Positions 9,895-16,000 of a stretch of 36,139 bases of DNA are shown here, in pieces. The notes beneath the pieces were generated by a model. That model worked only from the letters and a program-made list of their open reading frames with translations. It made no database searches and had not been told where the DNA came from. The DNA lies in contig JAEOUG010000125.1 of NCBI GenBank assembly GCA_016839445.1, forward strand, positions 1-36,139, given 5' to 3'. How positions within the stretch are numbered: the stretch's first letter is position 1; every line of letters starts with the position of its first letter. A program made the position numbers and the translations under genes. Source of the DNA: Candidatus Thorarchaeota archaeon. GTDB taxonomy: Archaea > Asgardarchaeota > Thorarchaeia > Thorarchaeales > Thorarchaeaceae.

Positions 9895-10605
9895 ATGTCT
9901 GCTACCTATTCGTTCTTCGCGAGATACTACGATGCCATCTACTCAGAGAAGGACTACAAATCAGAGGTAGAGTCTCTTCACAAGACAATCCAGGCCCTCA
10001 AACGTTCAGAGGGCAATACACTGCTCGATGCGGCCTGTGGTACTGGAGGACACATCCAGTACTTCAGAAACTACTACAATGCAGCCGGCATGGACGCAAG
10101 CAAGGAGATGCTCGAAGTGGCGCGTGGGAAGTTTGGTGATGTGGACTTCTATCAGGCAAACATGACCGAGTTCGACCTGAATCGTCAGTTTGATGTTGTC
10201 ACCTGCCTCTTCGGTTCAATCAGCTACTTGATCACGAAGGAATCCCTCCACCGCGCCATCAAGTGCTTCTCTGACCACACTGTCAGAGGAGGACTCGTCA
10301 TCATTGAACCAGTATTCACTGCGGAGACCGTGCGGCCAAGCTCGATGGGTATCCGCTGCGTTGACGAAGCGGAATACAAGCTATCACGCGTCAGTTCAAG
10401 CAAGCGCGAAGGGGACGTTGTCTACCTCAACTTCCATTATCTTCTGGCTACACCCTCGGAAGTTGAGCACATATTCGATCCAAGTCCAATGGGTGTCTTC
10501 TCGAAGCATGACTTCGTGGATGGCATGAAGTCTGCAGGTTTCGAAGTCATCGGCGAAGAATCAGGTCTCTCAAAAGAAGCTATCTTCATCGGCATCAAGC
10601 CATGA
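9895..10605 (+). CDS. Class I SAM-dependent methyltransferase (TylM1/DesVI/CypM-like N-methyltransferase family)
   Basis: LLDAACGTGGH (motif I), GMDASKEML, FDVVTCLFGSISYL and GGLVIIEP. Confidence 0.88.
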   Translation: MSATYSFFARYYDAIYSEKDYKSEVESLHKTIQALKRSEGNTLLDAACGTGGHIQYFRNYYNAAGMDASKEMLEVARGKFGDVDFYQANMTEFDLNRQFDVVTCLFGSISYLITKESLHRAIKCFSDHTVRGGLVIIEPVFTAETVRPSSMGIRCVDEAEYKLSRVSSSKREGDVVYLNFHYLLATPSEVEHIFDPSPMGVFSKHDFVDGMKSAGFEVIGEESGLSKEAIFIGIKP

Positions 10606-10668
10606 ATGCCTGTTAGTCATATTGAGACCTATGGTGTCCACTAGGGGTGGGGCTCTGTGCTCTCCTGT

Positions 10669-11028
10669 TCAGTATCCCCACTCTTGGCCCAGTCGCTGGC
10701 GGTACCACCTCTGACCACGTTTGGTCAGGGAGTAGTCCTCACCTATCTTCTGAACAAGGTCCATGCTCTCCATGTTCTGGAGGACTCCAAAGAGCTTGTC
10801 CTCAGAAGCCCCTGTCATCTCACGAAGCCTCGAGAAGGTGAGTTTGCCATTCCGCTTAAGATGCTGAGCCACACTGTATTTACTGACCGCTCTGGTCTCG
10901 CTGCGGGTGATTATGTGACCGCAGTTTGTGCACAGAAGATCGCCCTTGTTGTCATCTCGAGCTACCTCCTTGCTGCCACAGATCGGACAGGGAGTCTTAG
11001 AGAATCTCAGTGAACTCCTGTGTGACAT
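10669..11028 (-). CDS. TFIIB-type zinc ribbon fused to a winged-helix domain
   Basis: CPICGSKEVARDDNKGDLLCTNCGHII, then HLKRNGKLTFSRLREMTG...LQNMESMDLV...YSLTKRG. TATA-like TTTTATC at about 11064-11070 on the minus strand. Confidence 0.8.
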   Translation of the reverse strand: MSHRSSLRFSKTPCPICGSKEVARDDNKGDLLCTNCGHIITRSETRAVSKYSVAQHLKRNGKLTFSRLREMTGASEDKLFGVLQNMESMDLVQKIGEDYSLTKRGQRWYRQRLGQEWGY

Positions 11029-11092
11029 AGGTTTTAACCAATTAACCCCTGACTGGGATACTAGATAAAAGTAACGAAGCGGTATAGATGTT

Positions 11093-11608
11093 TCAGGAGT
11101 CTACCTGTCCTTTTCGCCCGAGTTCTGCGAAGAAGCTCTCATAGTCCATCTCAAAAGACGACCGCTGGCCCAGTCTCACTTGCTTCTTGTCCGAGTCAAG
11201 CTCTACGTATCCATCCGTCTGAAGCTCTCGAAGATCTGCTAGTACACCCTTCAAGCCCTTCCTCCTGAACTTCTGAACTCTCTGAAGTGAGACCCATCCT
11301 CCTTCTTGGTAGGCAAGCGTGATGACAACAAGCAGTGTTGCCGCAAGCCTGTCAGGAAGTGGTGAACTTCCCTGTGCTGATCCAACATCCGCAACTGCGT
11401 CAAGATAGAATACCCCGTAGAGAGGGTTATGCTTGATTTGGAGCCCTAGCCGTGACAGATGCCTTGAGAGGGACCCTAGCTTCTTGAAGAGCAGAGGGCG
11501 TCCGACCTCATCAGGTAGGCCTAGGGCATCCAGCATATCCTCTACGCTGGCCCCAATGGGGTCTCCACTCCTGGTAAGGAGCTTCATCAGGATACCAAAC
11601 TCGTTCAT
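11093..11608 (-). CDS. KITE (tandem winged-helix) SMC accessory subunit, Nse1/Nse3/ScpB-like, without a RING domain
   Basis: WH-A: LSRHLSRLGLQIK...FYL. WH-B: LAATLLVVITLAY..GGWVS...LRELQTDGYV...VRLGQRSSFEM, which resembles the Nse1/MAGE LGxR..E motif. ATG 11608 has a GGAGG SD; the ORF is open from 11623. Confidence 0.7.
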   Translation of the reverse strand: MNEFGILMKLLTRSGDPIGASVEDMLDALGLPDEVGRPLLFKKLGSLSRHLSRLGLQIKHNPLYGVFYLDAVADVGSAQGSSPLPDRLAATLLVVITLAYQEGGWVSLQRVQKFRRKGLKGVLADLRELQTDGYVELDSDKKQVRLGQRSSFEMDYESFFAELGRKGQVDS

Positions 11609-11724
11609 GGGCTTGCCTCCCATTGTATACTAGCCACAAAAACCTGACTCGTGGCTGCCCAGTCCGCGCGCAAGATAGTAACAACAGGTGACTACTTACT
11701 GTGACCCTAATTTGTGGCTCCGCA

Positions 11725-11731
11725 TTATATA
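11725..11731 (+). promoter_or_regulatory. Putative TATA box for the micro-ORF array
   Basis: TTATATA ending 32 nt before the ATG at 11764. Confidence 0.55.
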
Positions 11732-11763
11732 CTGATTCTGAGTGGTGTATGTTGTGAACTATA

Positions 11764-11871
11764 ATGGCTCTAACAACCAACAATCCCAACACATCTGTGC
11801 TGAAGAACAAGACCGGCAAGGTTCAGTCAACTGATGCGCTTGCCTATGCCTACGCCACTGTGGTGAGGTGA
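11764..11871 (+). CDS. Micro-ORF 1 of the paralogous peptide array (35 aa, MALTTNNPNTSVLKNKTGKVQSTDALAYAYATVVR)
   Basis: Translated by hand. Lies downstream of the TATA-like box, is similar to micro-ORFs 3 and 4, and its stop lies within the GAGGTGA SD of the next ORF. Confidence 0.7.
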   Translation: MALTTNNPNTSVLKNKTGKVQSTDALAYAYATVVR

Positions 11872-11876
11872 ACTGA

Positions 11877-11993
11877 ATGATGCTGTGCCATCGTGAAGTC
11901 AGTACTCTGCATGTTGACCTCGCTGTTGTCCAGCGTGGCCACGTTGTGGTCAGAGAAGCGGTCAGGAGTATGCAGAATCAGCATATCCTGTGA
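11877..11993 (+). CDS. Micro-ORF 2 of the array (38 aa, MMLCHREVSTLHVDLAVVQRGHVVVREAVRSMQNQHIL), the most divergent member
   Basis: GAGGTGA SD at 11865-11871. GHVVVREAV aligns without gaps to GKVQSTDAL of ORF 1. Confidence 0.5.
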   Translation: MMLCHREVSTLHVDLAVVQRGHVVVREAVRSMQNQHIL

Positions 11994-12021
11994 CCACCCT
12001 ATGTATGGAGTGAAGTTGACA

Positions 12022-12132
12022 ATGATGTCGCAAGTATCTGGAACCTACCCAATATCGGTGACAAGAGAGAACAAGTCAGTTAGGGTGCACTCTCGCCCCC
12101 TGGCCTACGCAAACCTAACGGAGTCGAGGTGA
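12022..12132 (+). CDS. Micro-ORF 3 of the array (36 aa, MMSQVSGTYPISVTRENKSVRVHSRPLAYANLTESR)
   Basis: GGAGTGA SD at 12007-12013. Shares SV...NK..(K/R)V.S...LAYA..T..R with ORF 1. It is the 3' part of the 11893-12132 ORF in the supplied track. Confidence 0.7.
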   Translation: MMSQVSGTYPISVTRENKSVRVHSRPLAYANLTESR

Positions 12133-12136
12133 TAAT

Positions 12137-12235
12137 ATGGCGCTTGCTAAGATTGAAGCAGATCCCCGAGTCTTCACGAAGCCGCACAAGGTGATTTCTA
12201 CAGAGGCAATCACTCGTGCATACTTCAGGAAGTAG
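12137..12235 (+). CDS. Micro-ORF 4 of the array (32 aa, MALAKIEADPRVFTKPHKVISTEAITRAYFRK)
   Basis: GAGGTGA SD at 12126-12132. Shares the MAL start and KV.ST(D/E)A(L/I)..AY with ORF 1. Confidence 0.7.
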   Translation: MALAKIEADPRVFTKPHKVISTEAITRAYFRK

Positions 12236-12284
12236 AGGACTTGGAGGACAGTCTCAGGTTATTCAATTTCCGTCTCCTCTCATG

Positions 12285-12317
12285 ATCCTTGCCTGCACTC
12301 AGCACGCAGGCTGGGAT
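12285..12317. terminator. Hairpin between the convergent peptide array and kleisin gene
   Basis: ATCCTtGCCTGC (12285-12296) pairs with GCAGGCtGGGAT (12306-12317). Confidence 0.35.
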
Positions 12318-12391
12318 TGGAGTTGATGTTCTAGAGCCAAAGAACTCACTCGTGAGGATTGGCAGGGCCCCAAAATGGGTCGTGCCGGTCC

Positions 12392-13033
12392 TCACACCTT
12401 CTTCTTGGACACTAACTCGGTTTCGGGGTCATACTCTAGAAGACCACGAGAAACCAACACGATCACAAACAGGAATCTCTTGAGAAACAAATCGAAATCA
12501 TCGGTGTCAATCAGTTCCTCCAATGGTATCGATTCACGTTCTGGAACAGACCTCAGGAACTCCATGAGATCATCAAGAAAGATGGAGTCCTCGGTCTCAA
12601 TCGTATATCCGTTGGGCACTCCAGACATCTGAGGTATCTGTTCCTCTGTTTCTGCTCTCGCCATGGCCTCCAACAGATTGCCGACTCGTGTCAATGACTC
12701 GTCAAGAGATGTCCTCTCTAGGTGCCTAAACACAACCGGCTGGTGGATTGCCAGCATACTCGCTAGTCTTCGAGGAGGCAGTTCTCGAATGCGTTCCACG
12801 TAGAGCTCTGGTGACGCAAGTATTCTGGCGAGCTCTTGTACTCTGTTCACCTTGAGGCCAAGAATCTCGTTGAGCATCTCGTCAATGTCCAGCCGACTGC
12901 CAACTTCCGCTGCCATATCTCGCAGATTCTGGTAGGACTCAGTCAGGCGAAACTCGAGTGGGTCAATCTCCCCGGCCCTTATCTGCTCTGCAACCTCCAG
13001 AACTCGTTCCGCAAGATCCGTAGCTCCAGTCAT
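12392..13033 (-). CDS. Kleisin (ScpA/Nse4-like) subunit of an SMC complex
   Basis: N-terminal GEIDPLEFRL...LNEILGLKVNRV helical domain. C-terminal WH IPLEELI......FLKRFLFVIVLVSRGLLEY. Directly follows the SMC gene; likely ATG at 13033, ORF open from 13090. Confidence 0.75.
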   Translation of the reverse strand: MTGATDLAERVLEVAEQIRAGEIDPLEFRLTESYQNLRDMAAEVGSRLDIDEMLNEILGLKVNRVQELARILASPELYVERIRELPPRRLASMLAIHQPVVFRHLERTSLDESLTRVGNLLEAMARAETEEQIPQMSGVPNGYTIETEDSIFLDDLMEFLRSVPERESIPLEELIDTDDFDLFLKRFLFVIVLVSRGLLEYDPETELVSKKKV

Positions 13034-13043
13034 AGGGTTCACC

Positions 13044-16000
13044 TCACTGAGCCTTGAAAGAGGGACTTTCAATGATAACCGAGGGCTCAACGCCGTTCGG
13101 GGCTACGACTCCAAGTATCTTGTCAGCGTGTTTTAGCAGATGTGTGCTCTTCGCAGGAGTCAGTAGAATGAACTGGCTTCTCCTTGACGCATCATGGAAC
13201 AGCCTGCTAACCAGTTCTGTGTTGGTTGCATCTAGGAAGGTGTCAACCTCGTCCATTACATAAACTGGAGCTGGGTTGAACCTCTGTAGCGCAAGTATGA
13301 GCCCAATCGCGATCAGAGACCGTTCGCCTCCTGATCCTGCACTCAGTTCTCCGTAACCCTCTGTCTTGATTCTTGTCCTGAACAAAACACCGTACTCCCC
13401 ATCGTGCTTCTCAAGCTTGAACCTCACACTGCCCGGGAACTTGACGGTGCTCAGGATGCGGTTGACCTCTCCCTCGACCTCATCCAATGCCTTGTTCATG
13501 CCGTCAAGGTACTGATCCCTGATGTCCTTGACTGTAGCTTCCGCCTCGTCGAGTTCCTCAGAGAGCTCGGCCACGCGTTGCGAGAGCTCTCCCAGCCGGT
13601 CCTTCAGTCTTGATTCAGTGAGGGCGACATTCTCGGAGATGTCTTGGTAGTCATCTAGGATGTGACGAAGTCTGATTAGTTCGTCGCGAACCGTCTCGAG
13701 GTTTCTGATTCCGTCAGGCCTTGTCAGTCCCTCTAGCTGCGATGAGAGACTGTCAAGCTCGTACTGCAGGTTGGTCATTTGCCGCTTTGCCTGCACGATC
13801 TGAAGTCTTCGGTCCTTGACTGTGACATTGAGCTCTACAAGCCTCTGGCTTAGTTCTTTCAATGTCTGTGAGGTCACCTGTATCTCCTCCCTGAGTGCAC
13901 TGCGCCGATTGAGAAGCTCAGCACGGCTCTCCTTGAGTTGCTCTATTACCTCAAGGTGTTCTGATGCACTATCTCTTGCAGCCCTGATTTCCTCGCGAAG
14001 TTCTGTTATTCTCTCAGACAGCATTGTTTCATTCTCGGTGGCCTTCTTGAGCTCTACACGCTTCTGTTGCTCGTCTCTTCTGGCGAATTCGAGGCGCCTC
14101 TCCAGCTTGGAGAGGTCTCCTTGATGTTTCCTCAGCTTGATCTTCAGGGCAGAGTCTTGGCCAACCAAACGGCTCCTCTCTGGAGGCTGTGTGCTGTCAA
14201 GCTTCCTTAGCTCTCTCTCAGCTGACCCAAGATCCTTCTGGAGTCCCTTGAGTTCCTCATCTAAGACAGCAATCCGTTCCTGAAGGTTCGGAATGCTAGA
14301 TAGAAGGCTCTTCCTCTTCTCCCAGGTGGCACTCCAACGCGTGATTTGGCTGAGCAGATTCACAGTCTCCTCTCTCTCTGACGTGAGCTTCTCAATCTCA
14401 CTGATTACCTCGGTGGCACGGCTTCTCGAAGCTGTCAGGCTGGTTTCAGCACTTGCCAGTCTCGATGAGAGTGGGGTTGTTGAGATGATTCCTGTCGGGT
14501 CGCTTCTCGGATTGCTGACAACCTTCGTATCATCGGGGATGATGACATGGCCGTCCTGCGATACTGCTGGCAGTCCCTTCTTCTTTGCAGCCCTTAGAGC
14601 TGTCTTCGCGTCCTCTGTGAAAGCGAAGTTCCCCAGGACGGCAGACAGGACCTTCTTGCTCTCTTCGTCCATTCCAAGTACATCCCACAGCCACCCGAGG
14701 ACTCCCTTCAGCTGTGGAATCTCCTTTTCCTCACTATCCTGGTGTTCTTTGATGAGTATCACTGGGCTAGGAGCCTTGGCTTTGTCGCGTATCTTCTGGA
14801 TGAGCTGGAAATCAGATTCATCAGTGGTCACGAAGGCAAAGGCCATGTTTCCAGATAGCAGGGCCTCTATGGGCGTTGAGTGCTCCTCCTTGCCAGTGAA
14901 CATCTCCAGCAGAGGACCGGTGGAGGAGGCAATGCCGTGCTCAGCAATCGCCGCCTTGACTTCCCTCACTGATATTGGTATCCTTTCCGAAGCCTCCGAG
15001 AGCTTGGTCTTGATTTCATCAATCTCCTTTTGGAGCTGAGAAGATGTGCTGCTTGCCCTGAATCTCTCCTCATTCAGAGATGCTATCTTCCTCTCAAGCT
15101 GGGCCTTCGTTGCAGCCAGCTGCTTCTCGTCTGCAGCTTCCATCGAGTCCCAGAGATGAGAGGACTTGCTTTCAATCGAGTGCAATTCTGCCTCTTCGAT
15201 CTGCATTCGCTCACGAACGCTTCTCATGAGAAGGTCCTTTCCCTCGATCTCTGCCTGAAGTGTTCTATACGCTCCATGTGCCTCAGAGCGTTTTGCGTTC
15301 CACTCTGCGAATGCAGTAAGGTCTTCCCGAATCTTTGAACGTTCTTCCTCTACTCCCTGAATCTCCCTCTCCAACCCCCGACTCTCTTCGAGATGCTGCT
15401 CGATTGTGGCAGAGATGCGGTCAAGGTCGCTCTTCGACCGTTCTCTCTTGTCCCTGTCTTTCTTGAGTTCTCCCTCGAGAAGTCTCATCTCTGCGACTTG
15501 CTTCTTCGTTTCGCCTTGCGACTTCTCAAGGTCTTTCTCTCGCTGTTCCAGAGTAGCATCCAGATGACCAATCTCTTTCTGCATACCCTCAAGCGAACTT
15601 CGGGCAGAGCTCTCTTCAACCTCTCTCTCCTTGATCTGGGATTCGATGCTCCCCTGCTCTTCCAGAATGTCGATAATGCCTGCCTCACGTTCGTCTATCT
15701 CCGCTTTGGCCTCCTCGACTCTCTTGGTAAGATCGCTCTGTCTTGCCCATCTGAGCTCAGTTTCGAGGTTGCTCTCCTGCTGCTGCAAGTCGCGCTTCCT
15801 CTGGAGCCGGGTGAGGTCTCCCTGCAGAAGCTGGATCTCACGTTCGACAGATCTTGACTCTGTGAGCGCGCTCTCAAGCCGTATGCGACTCTGAGCCACC
15901 TCGGTCTCTTGGAGAGTGATACGGTTACGTAGTTTGTCGAGGCCTGTACCCTCCTCGACAAGCCTGCGGACCTCCTGCGGGTCCATCTCGCGCAGTGCAT

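Follow-up and report, generated by a model that had tools for sequence, protein, structure and literature searches.

Four very short open reading frames (ORFs) occupy the plus strand of a 768-nt gap between two minus-strand genes (11093-11623, 176 aa, and 12392-13090, 232 aa) within an SMC gene cluster of Candidatus Thorarchaeota, and the question raised by this locus is whether they are genes and, if so, whether they serve the cluster in which they lie. The window, i.e. the whole stretch of DNA that was analysed, is 36,139 nt long. In Asgard archaea, to which no known organisms closer to eukaryotes can be preferred as relatives, most small proteins have yet to be charted.

Layout of the array and coupling of its ORFs

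Direct reading of the gap confirmed the coordinates and translations of all four ATG ORFs given in the initial annotation (Table 1), together with the TTATATA box upstream of ORF1 and the Shine-Dalgarno (SD) motifs before the other three: GAGGTGA at 11865-11871, 5 nt ahead of the ORF2 ATG and overlapping the AGG-TGA end of ORF1; GGAGTGA at 12007-12013, 8 nt ahead of the ORF3 ATG; and GAGGTGA at 12126-12132, 4 nt ahead of the ORF4 ATG and overlapping the AGG-TGA end of ORF3. In 20,000 random versions of the gap, generated with a first-order Markov model and scored for neighbouring ATG ORFs no shorter than 32 codons and lying close together, chains of three or more ORFs arose in 5% and chains of four or more in 0.4%; the real gap counts as a chain of three, the frame of ORF3 staying open further upstream. 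These ORF statistics alone are suggestive, and it is the comparative data that decide.

Table 1. Features of the array region (window positions)
Feature	Position	Strand	Basis
Putative operator and promoter	11676-11732	+	Inverted repeat, third half-site, TATA box
Conserved initial transcribed region/short leader (..CTGAG..TGTGAACTATA), without SD	11733-11763	+	
ORF1, A-type small protein, 35 aa, basic	11764-11871	+	Direct reading and relatives-only profile
ORF2, probably translated spacer, non-member of the A/B family	11877-11993	+	Direct reading and relatives
ORF3, degenerate 'D-type' (A-like) small ORF	12022-12132	+	TGTGAA-type leader remnant and SD upstream
ORF4, B-type small protein, 32 aa, basic, C-terminal Y-F-R-K	12137-12235	+	Relatives-only profile
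Deletion scar, holding a hairpin at 12284-12318	12236-12391	none	MFS gene starts here in relatives

The proposal that the ORFs are translationally coupled through SD motifs in the preceding stop region gained support across arrays, where SD-like motifs stand before 44 of 54 internal ORFs and only 2 of 51 first-in-array ORFs (background 7.7%). In relatives, the last codons of ORF4 (AGG AGA/AGG plus stop) form the SD of the gene that starts at +5/+6. The first ORF lacks an SD, and each later ORF takes its SD from the Arg codons and stop of the preceding ORF, an unusual coupling device in which C-terminal Arg codons double as the ribosome-binding site of the next gene.

The hairpin that had been noted downstream does fold, but no better than shuffled sequences (z = -0.69) and with no T-run; it is not conserved, relatives having a gene at the same place, and it was rejected as a terminator. 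An Rfam scan of 10500-13500 returned a single chance lncRNA match (E=0.46), and no tRNAs were found in the window or in three paralogous loci.

A conserved family of small proteins

When a profile built from relatives only was run against the 1060 reading frames of the window, ORF1 (E=5e-16) and ORF4 (E=1.6e-13) were recovered whereas ORF2 and ORF3 gave no score (E>10), so that the four paralogous genes of the initial annotation reduce to two members and a degenerate ORF3. Members are 27-37 aa long, with N-terminal M-A-L, C-terminal S-T-x-A-[LIV]-x-x-A-Y-x(1-4)-R(R) and a net basic charge, and both ORF1 and ORF4 conform to this pattern when compared, column by column, with 48 A-type and 44 B-type sequences. 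Of the pattern ORF3 retains only ..P-L-A-Y-A.. and ORF2 nothing. ORF3 scored E=0.014 only against a profile of its own 10 positional orthologues, which have a median dN/dS of 0.36, and is a decayed positional orthologue, very probably an A-like copy.

The earlier suggestion that selection acts on the peptide was upheld by the dN/dS check, with medians of 0.28 for ORF1 orthologues (n=11) and 0.26 for ORF4 orthologues (n=13) and an excess of third-position differences that is strong in the latter; these values, from a simple Nei-Gojobori count in which synonymous divergence is near saturation (pS 0.5-0.7), point to purifying selection at a median dN/dS of about 0.26-0.28. All 40 sequences of the A-gene alignment have an open sense frame, each other frame being stopped in 37-40 of them, and in both A and B the ATG start is conserved and indels come in multiples of three.

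A profile search of a sample of Asgard genomes from across the phylum, as had been proposed, recovered the family from 52 of the 59 genomes that belong to the window's own GTDB family and from 0 of 191 in 27 other families. A search of relatives likewise gave 27 of 27 genomes of the genus, 34 of 36 of the GTDB family (those 27 included) and 0 of 24 outside, and the cassette family is, as far as searched, confined to the window's own GTDB family. The syntenic relatives that bear names carry the title Candidatus Thorarchaeota. Each genome holds 3-13 copies as stop-free open frames, distributed over at least five syntenic locus types of which one lies beside the SMC cluster; the window's own genome has three further copies of the A-type ORF1. 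Among 1.84 billion protein representatives there were 49 matches at E<=0.001, nearly all of them 29-46 aa long.

No named family was found for the small proteins, in agreement with the initial annotation, which had not recognised them. Pfam, NCBIfam and PHROGs returned nothing meaningful for the four peptides (for ORF2, sub-threshold chance matches only), a PDB profile search gave chance matches only (E=1.7), and the full-text literature listings contained no such small-protein family. Among the passages retrieved from preprint 10.64898/2025.12.15.694180, 'Asgard' occurs once, in the reference list.

The AF2 model of ORF1 has a helix at residues 23-34 that carries the conserved motif (pLDDT ~77-81) and an N-terminal half of low confidence. 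A prediction of the complex of ORF1 (A alignment) and ORF4 (B alignment), run without controls, gave no answer for or against pairing (score 0.01, mark 0.32). The C-terminal motif has some resemblance to PIP-box, UIM, MIM and SERF motifs, to our knowledge too little in its spacing or its key residues to support an assignment.

In metatranscriptomes of a single study, two contigs with 99-100% identity to the window cover 11801-12070 and 12060-12322. They show presence in RNA libraries and no more, the runs having been chosen with the same DNA stretch, the libraries possibly containing DNA and the contigs not being strand-resolved. Within 10000-14000 RNA-library contigs fall inside the array only, the bare flanks not being counted as evidence.

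A shared putative operator

Upstream of ORF1 lie an inverted repeat, TAGTAACA-N4-GTGACT (11676-11693), a third half-site, TGTGACCC (11700-11707), GTGGCTCCGC (11714-11723) and the TATA box (11725-11731). The same block of ~90 nt precedes 43 of the 44 A-type ORFs examined, across loci and genera, the one exception being internal to an array, and we infer from its palindromic form and position that it contains a putative operator. Mean pairwise identity (n=42) is 0.80 in this block, 0.69 in the A coding sequence and 0.27 in the flank from -190 to -91; the palindromic putative operator and TATA box are thus more tightly conserved than the genes. The short leader is also conserved across the promoter alignment. 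Variability in the promoter block has no 3-base periodicity. An antisense ORF at 11511-11819 was rejected, antisense frames being stopped in 37-39 of 40 sequences of the A-gene alignment and the promoter having no codon periodicity.

A 31-nt promoter pattern gave 22 matches in five genomes and 12 in five more, against 0 for the reversed control, and 0 in viral contigs. In both five-genome scans most matches head peptide arrays without a following large gene. Counted from the TATA end, the ATG of 14 of the 15 array-type matches is at +32 (in one case +31) or is accompanied by a second in-frame ATG at +29; in all 8 of the second scan it is at +32. The window has this architecture, with the first ORF 32 nt past the TATA box of the conserved promoter and the later ORFs SD-coupled. 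Transcription would start ~8-9 nt before the ORF1 ATG, a length of 5'UTR that we take from general archaeal promoter geometry.

The same putative operator also heads stand-alone A-B(-E) operons and two kinds of MFS pump genes, and occurs in a looser form upstream of a gene for a bactofilin-domain protein. With one putative operator before peptide operons, MFS pumps and the bactofilin-domain gene, these genes appear to form a regulon. Within the genome of the window, complete copies of the block are confined to the four array loci and to a site preceding an MFS gene on contig C164. No window-wide enrichment was seen for the motifs TGTGAC and GTGACCM. A 119-aa Zn-ribbon/wHTH protein considered as regulator of the array was rejected, since its gene follows the 176-aa gene in 23 loci, array or not.

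The ORF2 spacer

ORF2 shares 13% identity with ORF1 and overlies the DNA blocks TGGCCAC (11936-11942), TGGTCAG (11947-11953), GGTCAGG (11960-11966) and CATATCCTGTGACCA (11982-11996). These blocks are invariant in 13 loci, yet the open frame differs among relatives, being frame X in seven loci (the window, L049, L050, L051, L062 and L066 among them), X passing to Z in one and Y in six. Its dN/dS of 0.63-0.73 and nearly flat codon-position differences come from an alignment of mixed frames. ORF2 is therefore not a conserved peptide, and conservation seems to lie in the DNA, although ribosomes probably read the spacer. The blocks resemble a second, degenerate copy of the operator/promoter, which would make the four-ORF array look like a tandem duplication of a [promoter-A-B] unit. 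The spacer could instead be an RNA element; RNAalifold gave a covariation term of -0.02, an uninformative test in that both arms are invariant.

Insertion into the SMC cluster and loss of a pump gene

Only the SMC protein, alone among the labels of the cluster, had its identity confirmed; the proteins labelled 'kleisin' and 'KITE' had no match in Pfam or PDB. Eight related loci lack the array, their two SMC-associated genes lying directly side by side. Of the 24 orthologous arrays, 23 are followed on the same strand by the coding sequence for an MFS N-terminus, at ~21 nt or less in 20 cases. Comparison of these loci shows an ancestral insertion, between two SMC-associated genes, of the cassette plus an MFS gene coupled to the last peptide gene. 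The pump matches MFS_1/MFS_3 and TIGR00900 and is Mef/EntS/Tap-like, of DHA3 type; a second array type precedes another MFS_1 gene, and in the window's own genome and in G001 a paralogue of the array pump is driven directly by the same promoter.

At the corresponding site of the window no MFS remnant was detected by blastn, tblastx or tblastn, the window's genome (90% complete) has no close orthologue of the array pump, and locus L061 is an intermediate with a truncated 123-aa MFS protein. The comparison shows that the adjacent pump gene has since been deleted in the window's genome. Adjacency of the array to the SMC cluster is incidental, an accident of insertion.

Interpretation of the locus

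The region 11676-12235 is very probably a single transcription unit in which a gated promoter precedes polycistronic small ORFs, the A and B products being genuine proteins, ORF3 decaying and ORF2 a spacer, and which represents a cassette family confined, as far as searched, to one GTDB family. A repressor or activator would gate the archaeal promoter, the resulting mRNA would carry all of the small ORFs, and their translational coupling would yield the peptides in fixed proportion. What we describe is a multi-copy family under clear purifying selection, found in nearly all of the genomes searched from one Thorarchaeal family.

As to function, the leading, although tentative, reading is that the basic peptides work in trans alongside the co-regulated efflux pumps, whether exported without a leader or serving as modulators of the pumps. 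We know of no MFS pumps that export 30-residue peptides, the C-terminal helices are weakly amphipathic (over the last 14 residues, mean Eisenberg hydrophobic moment 0.32 for A and 0.25 for B; mean hydrophobicity 0.02 and -0.18), and no transporter lies near three of the five locus types, all of which speaks against export; that the window's genome retained its array once the neighbouring pump gene was gone tells against any reliance on the pump. About as likely as the pump-linked role is that the peptides form an intracellular A/B(/E) complex with another target, possibly the operator itself. More speculative is the doubtful prospect of a private regulon of one Asgard family, in which one ultra-conserved palindromic operator would control operons of basic A/B and acidic E micro-proteins, two kinds of MFS pump and the bactofilin-domain protein, the peptides being either a leaderless, MFS-exported signal or antagonist or DNA-binding autoregulators of the operator. 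If true, either peptide role would be a peptide-based system of a kind undescribed in archaea. The shared operator provides a concrete handle for finding the regulator, and the regulon ties the peptides to efflux pumps.

Cis-acting leader peptides (uORFs), setting translation of the pump by stalling or termination-reinitiation and with products that have no role of their own, are an improbable explanation. Their appeal is that arrays lie between a regulated promoter and MFS genes, that the stop of the last ORF is ~5 nt from the pump start with its final codons serving as the pump SD, that one promoter copy drives a pump without peptides and another does so via a single divergent small ORF, and that conservation is concentrated C-terminally. 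Three of the five locus types, however, are stand-alone A-B or A-B-E operons with no large gene downstream, the window's array outlived its pump gene with ORF1 and ORF4 intact, and B peptides of locus type II keep their terminal Arg-Arg where the codons form no SD and no ORF follows. The invariant Tyr, moreover, lies at varying distances from the C-terminus, a poor fit to an exit-tunnel arrest motif.

The RiPP precursors that had been suggested, multi-copy and with modifying enzymes encoded elsewhere, have very little probability left. Tandem multi-copy small genes, a conserved motif with an invariant Tyr and Ser-Thr and an adjacent transporter at some loci would suit such a role, but no maturase lies beside any locus type examined: the conserved neighbours (1.5-4 kb flanks) include no radical-SAM, YcaO, lanthionine-synthetase-like or dedicated peptidase gene, the five locus types having instead a Zn-ribbon membrane protein, desulfoferrodoxin and MFS pumps and, called by eye, a PolX-like protein, a 3-hydroxyacyl-CoA dehydrogenase and a GNAT-like protein. 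Cys is absent from the peptides (0-1 in 92 A and B sequences), and both peptide ends are conserved, with no split into leader and core.

A non-coding DNA or RNA element with incidental ORFs is scarcely tenable for the array as a whole; it suits the ORF2 segment, where nucleotides but not the frame are conserved, and the promoter block is the best-conserved part, but for A and B the uniquely open sense frame, indels in multiples of three, third-position excess and low dN/dS argue against it, as do the conserved ATG and the properly spaced SD motifs.

Short-linear-motif ligands or modulators of the adjacent SMC/'kleisin'/'KITE' complex, the functional tie favoured by the position of the array (divergent, ~140 nt away from where the 176-aa gene begins, a placement kept in array-bearing related loci), are largely refuted by distribution and almost certainly a misreading, since only one of at least five locus types adjoins the SMC cluster and the four others are unlinked to it, eight related loci have the cluster without the array, the array arrived with an MFS gene and the family is co-regulated with pumps, not SMC genes. 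A tempting but wrong assignment of the peptides to SMC machinery is thereby corrected.

Comparison with known systems

In Firmicutes, leaderless multi-peptide bacteriocin operons such as those of aureocin A70 (four peptides) and enterocin L50 (two peptides) resemble the thorarchaeal arrays in their tandem genes for ~30-aa cationic peptides without leader, signal or Cys and in variable copy number. Their peptides act on membranes, are hydrophobic or amphipathic and usually come with ABC exporters and immunity proteins; in the thorarchaeal loci, by contrast, the A and B helices are only weakly amphipathic, the pumps are MFS proteins, there is no evident immunity gene and purifying selection preserves the peptides across genera. 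The co-expressed dedicated exporter of the bacteriocin operons may have a counterpart in the MFS pumps, whose genes come after the peptide genes in two of the five array types and carry the putative operator as well; the window has no pump gene.

Leader peptides that control drug-efflux or resistance genes such as mef/msr, tet(L), erm and cat by translational attenuation offer a second parallel, with short ORFs between a promoter and a Mef/EntS-like MFS pump gene whose translation is coupled to the last ORF. Such leader peptides are single and cis-acting, with no stand-alone copies, whereas here arrays comprise 2-5 ORFs, most have no downstream pump gene, and the stand-alone copies, which make up three of the five locus types, are also under purifying selection; the small ORFs are therefore not restricted to a position directly upstream of a pump gene.

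The small proteins of ~30-70 aa from model archaea, Haloferax and Methanosarcina among them, are likewise genuine, conserved and usually missed or left unnamed by annotation. As far as is known, those archaeal proteins are mostly single-copy zinc-finger or membrane proteins, whereas the thorarchaeal family lacks Cys and is basic, multi-copy, polycistronic and tied to one shared operator.

Coding evidence for the small ORFs

The 768-nt gap between the minus-strand genes for proteins of 176 and 232 aa carries four plus-strand ORFs (ORF1–ORF4), which direct reading found, with the TTATATA box and three Shine-Dalgarno (SD)-like motifs, exactly where the initial annotation had placed them. Taken alone, ORF statistics make the array only mildly unusual, as chains of at least four ORFs arose in 0.4% and of at least three in 5% of 20,000 random gaps; Rfam and tRNA scans gave no match. 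Nei-Gojobori counts on positional orthologues gave a median dN/dS, if anything overestimated because synonymous sites are near saturation, of 0.28 for ORF1 (n=11; 445/323/789 differences at codon positions 1/2/3), 0.26 for ORF4 (n=13; 832/600/1475) and 0.36 for ORF3 (n=11; 879/743/1129). For ORF1 and ORF4 these are not the values of about 1 that would have contradicted the selection on the peptides previously proposed, and their A (ORF1-like) and B (ORF4-like) types constitute a conserved coding family. The sense frame was open in 40/40 A genes, with stops in the other two sense and the three antisense frames in 37–40 of the 40, so the overlapping antisense ORF at 11511–11819 was removed as a candidate. 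That the array is non-coding is, we consider, very improbable.

A profile free of any sequence from the window's own genome (G000) recovered ORF1 (E=5e-16) and ORF4 (E=1.6e-13) and gave no score for ORF2 or ORF3; the suggested paralogy of all four thus stands for the outer pair only. ORF3, which scored E=0.014 when compared with its positional orthologues, is the decayed local copy of an A-like gene, here termed D-type.

The A peptides (about 33–36 aa, MALTTN..SVLKNK...STDALxYAYxxRR) and B peptides (about 27–34 aa, MALAK.......K.ISTDAIxxAYFRR) are basic (median net charge +4 and +6, respectively) and essentially Cys-free, with weakly amphipathic helices. AF2 modelling of ORF1 (mean pLDDT 67) gave low confidence for the N-terminal half and a 12-residue helix at residues 23–34 (pLDDT about 77–81), which coincides exactly with the conserved motif. 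We found no relative in Pfam, NCBIfam, PHROGs or PDB and no description of such a family in a literature search; that these are RiPP precursors is quite improbable.

Positions of the array, its neighbours and related features (ORF1–ORF4 and other plain numbers, window coordinates; C, contigs of G000; L, related loci)
Feature	Position	Strand	Remarks
ORF1	11764–11871	+	A type
ORF2	11877–11993	+	
ORF3	12022–12132	+	D type
ORF4	12137–12235	+	B type
176-aa gene	11093–11623	-	SMC-adjacent; ScpB/KITE-like proposed
232-aa gene	12392–13090	-	SMC-adjacent; kleisin-like proposed
119-aa gene	10669–11028	-	TFIIB-type Zn-ribbon, winged-helix-like C-terminus; downstream of 176-aa gene
Copies of 11673–11871	C7:9870–10068, C157:18637–18814, C43:2274–2450		Promoter and A gene; 81–90% DNA identity
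508-aa MFS gene	C164:48532–50117 (L083:4533–6118)		Promoter-headed, no peptide ORFs
Bactofilin-domain genes	C98:1682–2917; L097, L102, L103, L112–L114		About 410–420 aa (274 aa in L113)
E ORFs	L003:1790–1900 (= L082:4927–5034), L016, L018–L020, L029, L043, L089, L095		
MFS remnant	L061:4682–5053		123 aa, in frame; N- and C-terminal parts joined

Distribution of the family

Three further copies of the stretch 11673–11871 occur in G000 (190 contigs, 90% complete), each pairing an ORF1-like gene with an ORF4-like gene behind it, and one locus has four such genes. The A peptides of G000 are 79–94% identical among themselves, versus 53–79% between ORF1 and its positional orthologues in other species, and the copies in a related genome (G001) likewise have genome-specific residues in common, which suggests gene conversion among paralogous cassettes within a genome.

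A profile built from the 11 G000 copies matched 27/27 genomes of the genus and 34/36 of the GTDB family (those 27 included), and 0/24 from other families. With a broader profile of 101 sequences and an even sample of the phylum, the search of Asgard genomes returned a lineage-restricted family, present in 52 of 59 genomes of the GTDB family (1–13 matches each, in stop-free frames) versus 0/191 from 27 other families. It is probably near-universal in its lineage, since four profile-negative members retain the promoter, with divergent small ORFs built to the same plan after it. Where a syntenic contig had an organism title, the name was Candidatus Thorarchaeota or, in a few cases, Promethearchaeota or Hermodarchaeota. 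Among 1.84 billion representative proteins there were 49 matches at E<=0.001, nearly all of 29–46 aa, and the ten checked were unnamed or 'hypothetical protein'. The representatives P0022, P0033 and P0043 include B-E read-through forms of 70–72 aa and one of 103 aa whose A peptide is preceded, in the same frame, by the N-terminal portion of an adjacent gene; such forms may be either genuine fusions or artefacts of gene calling.

A conserved promoter and probable translational coupling

A conserved non-coding control region of roughly 90 nt precedes 43 of the 44 A-type ORFs examined, the remaining one being internal to an array. It comprises an inverted repeat (TAGTCACA-N2-4-TGTGACT), a third half-site (TGTGACCC), GTGGCTYCGC, TATATATAC and a conserved leader, and the ATG lies 32 nt past the TATA end. 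This block, which lacks codon periodicity, is the best-conserved part of the cassette (mean pairwise identity 0.80; A coding sequence, 0.69; adjoining 100 nt upstream of the block, 0.27), and a 31-nt pattern from it gave 22 matches in five genomes and 12 in five more, with no match for the reversed control.

Translation of the ORF2 segment in three frames at 13 loci revealed invariant nucleotide blocks (TGGTCAC-N4-GTGGTCA-N5-6-GGTCAG ... CATATCCTGTGACCA ... TGTGAA-N-ATG), whereas the open frame bearing a start codon was X in the window plus five relatives, shifted from X to Z in one and Y in six. As the frame differs while the blocks do not, selection acts on DNA (or RNA) and not on a peptide, and ORF2 was ruled out as a conserved peptide. 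The GTGAC/GGTCAC motif of the main operator recurs in these blocks, which finish with the TGTGAA-ATG leader also found before ORF1; we interpret the segment as a degenerate second promoter/operator, and the four-ORF array as a promoter-A-B unit duplicated in tandem. The stems that RNAalifold gives for this segment never vary across loci and so say nothing on RNA structure.

An SD precedes 2/51 first ORFs versus 44/54 internal ORFs (background 7.7%). For internal ORFs the final codons of the gene before them supply it (CGG-AGG-TAA, ..R-R-stop; GTG-AGG-TGA, ..V-R-stop), the terminal AGG-AGA/AGG and stop of the B gene forming the SD of a gene starting 5–6 nt downstream. Such SD-in-codon coupling would yield the peptides in a fixed ratio, from a transcript with a putatively short leader. 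In one locus type B ends AGG-CGC-TGA with no gene after it, so the terminal Arg-Arg is also selected as protein; that the small ORFs are pure cis-acting leader peptides is unlikely.

Two metatranscriptomic libraries from one study hold contigs 99–100% identical to 11801–12070 and 12060–12322, so array sequence is present in RNA libraries and contiguous there from ORF1 to ORF3 and from ORF3 to past ORF4, irrespective of strand, level and ends.

Insertion into the SMC cluster and association with efflux pumps

Further along, the minus strand encodes a protein of 1122 aa that carries SMC_N and SMC-hinge domains. The 'kleisin' and 'KITE' labels of the genes flanking the array are the initial annotation's inference only, since neither protein has a Pfam match above threshold or a PDB sequence relative. 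In 23 related loci the 119-aa gene (70–78% identity) comes after the 176-aa gene whether the array is present or absent, and it looks like a fixed fourth member of the cluster. At this site (locus I) the array occurs in 24/35 fetched relatives, and in 23 of these 24 an MFS gene follows on the same strand, in 20 no more than about 21 nt from the final peptide gene; in eight relatives the 232-aa and 176-aa genes adjoin without insert. From these insert-free relatives, and the 119-aa gene with or without array, it follows that array and pump were inserted together in a sub-lineage and that the pump gene was later lost in G000. The window has no trace of the pump and G000, at 90% completeness, no close orthologue; the L061 remnant represents a stage between an intact gene and this clean loss. 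That the peptides modulate SMC is extremely improbable.

Elsewhere in the genus the cassette lies after a Zn-ribbon membrane protein (A-B), a desulfoferrodoxin or a PolX-like gene (both A-B-E), or, as A-B-A'-B', upstream of an MFS_1 pump of a second kind. The third small-ORF type, E, is absent from the window; it encodes an acidic peptide of about 35 aa (median net charge -3) ending ..[DE]EVL[AML]LEAT and, in two locus types, starts 5–6 nt past the B gene. Nine distinct sequences gave a median dN/dS of 0.53.

The complete promoter occurs in G000 at the four arrays and at one further place, directly before the gene for a 508-aa paralogue of this second pump (the one encoded after the four-peptide array of contig C43), an arrangement repeated in a congener (L099). 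Peptide operons and efflux pump genes thus have one operator in common, on which a putative factor would act. A looser version (TAGTCACA-N3-4-GTGACC palindrome and TATA) precedes bactofilin-domain genes (Pfam run on two of the proteins) in several genomes including G000, and these may belong to the same regulon.

As to function, we tentatively put forward two readings at about equal odds: the peptides might act together with the co-regulated pumps, either being exported by them or modulating them, or they might form a complex, A/B(/E), inside the cell with some other target, which could be the operator. The locus-I pump matches MFS_1/MFS_3 and TIGR00900 and, at scores under their naming cut-offs, resembles the Mef, EntS and Tap efflux pumps.
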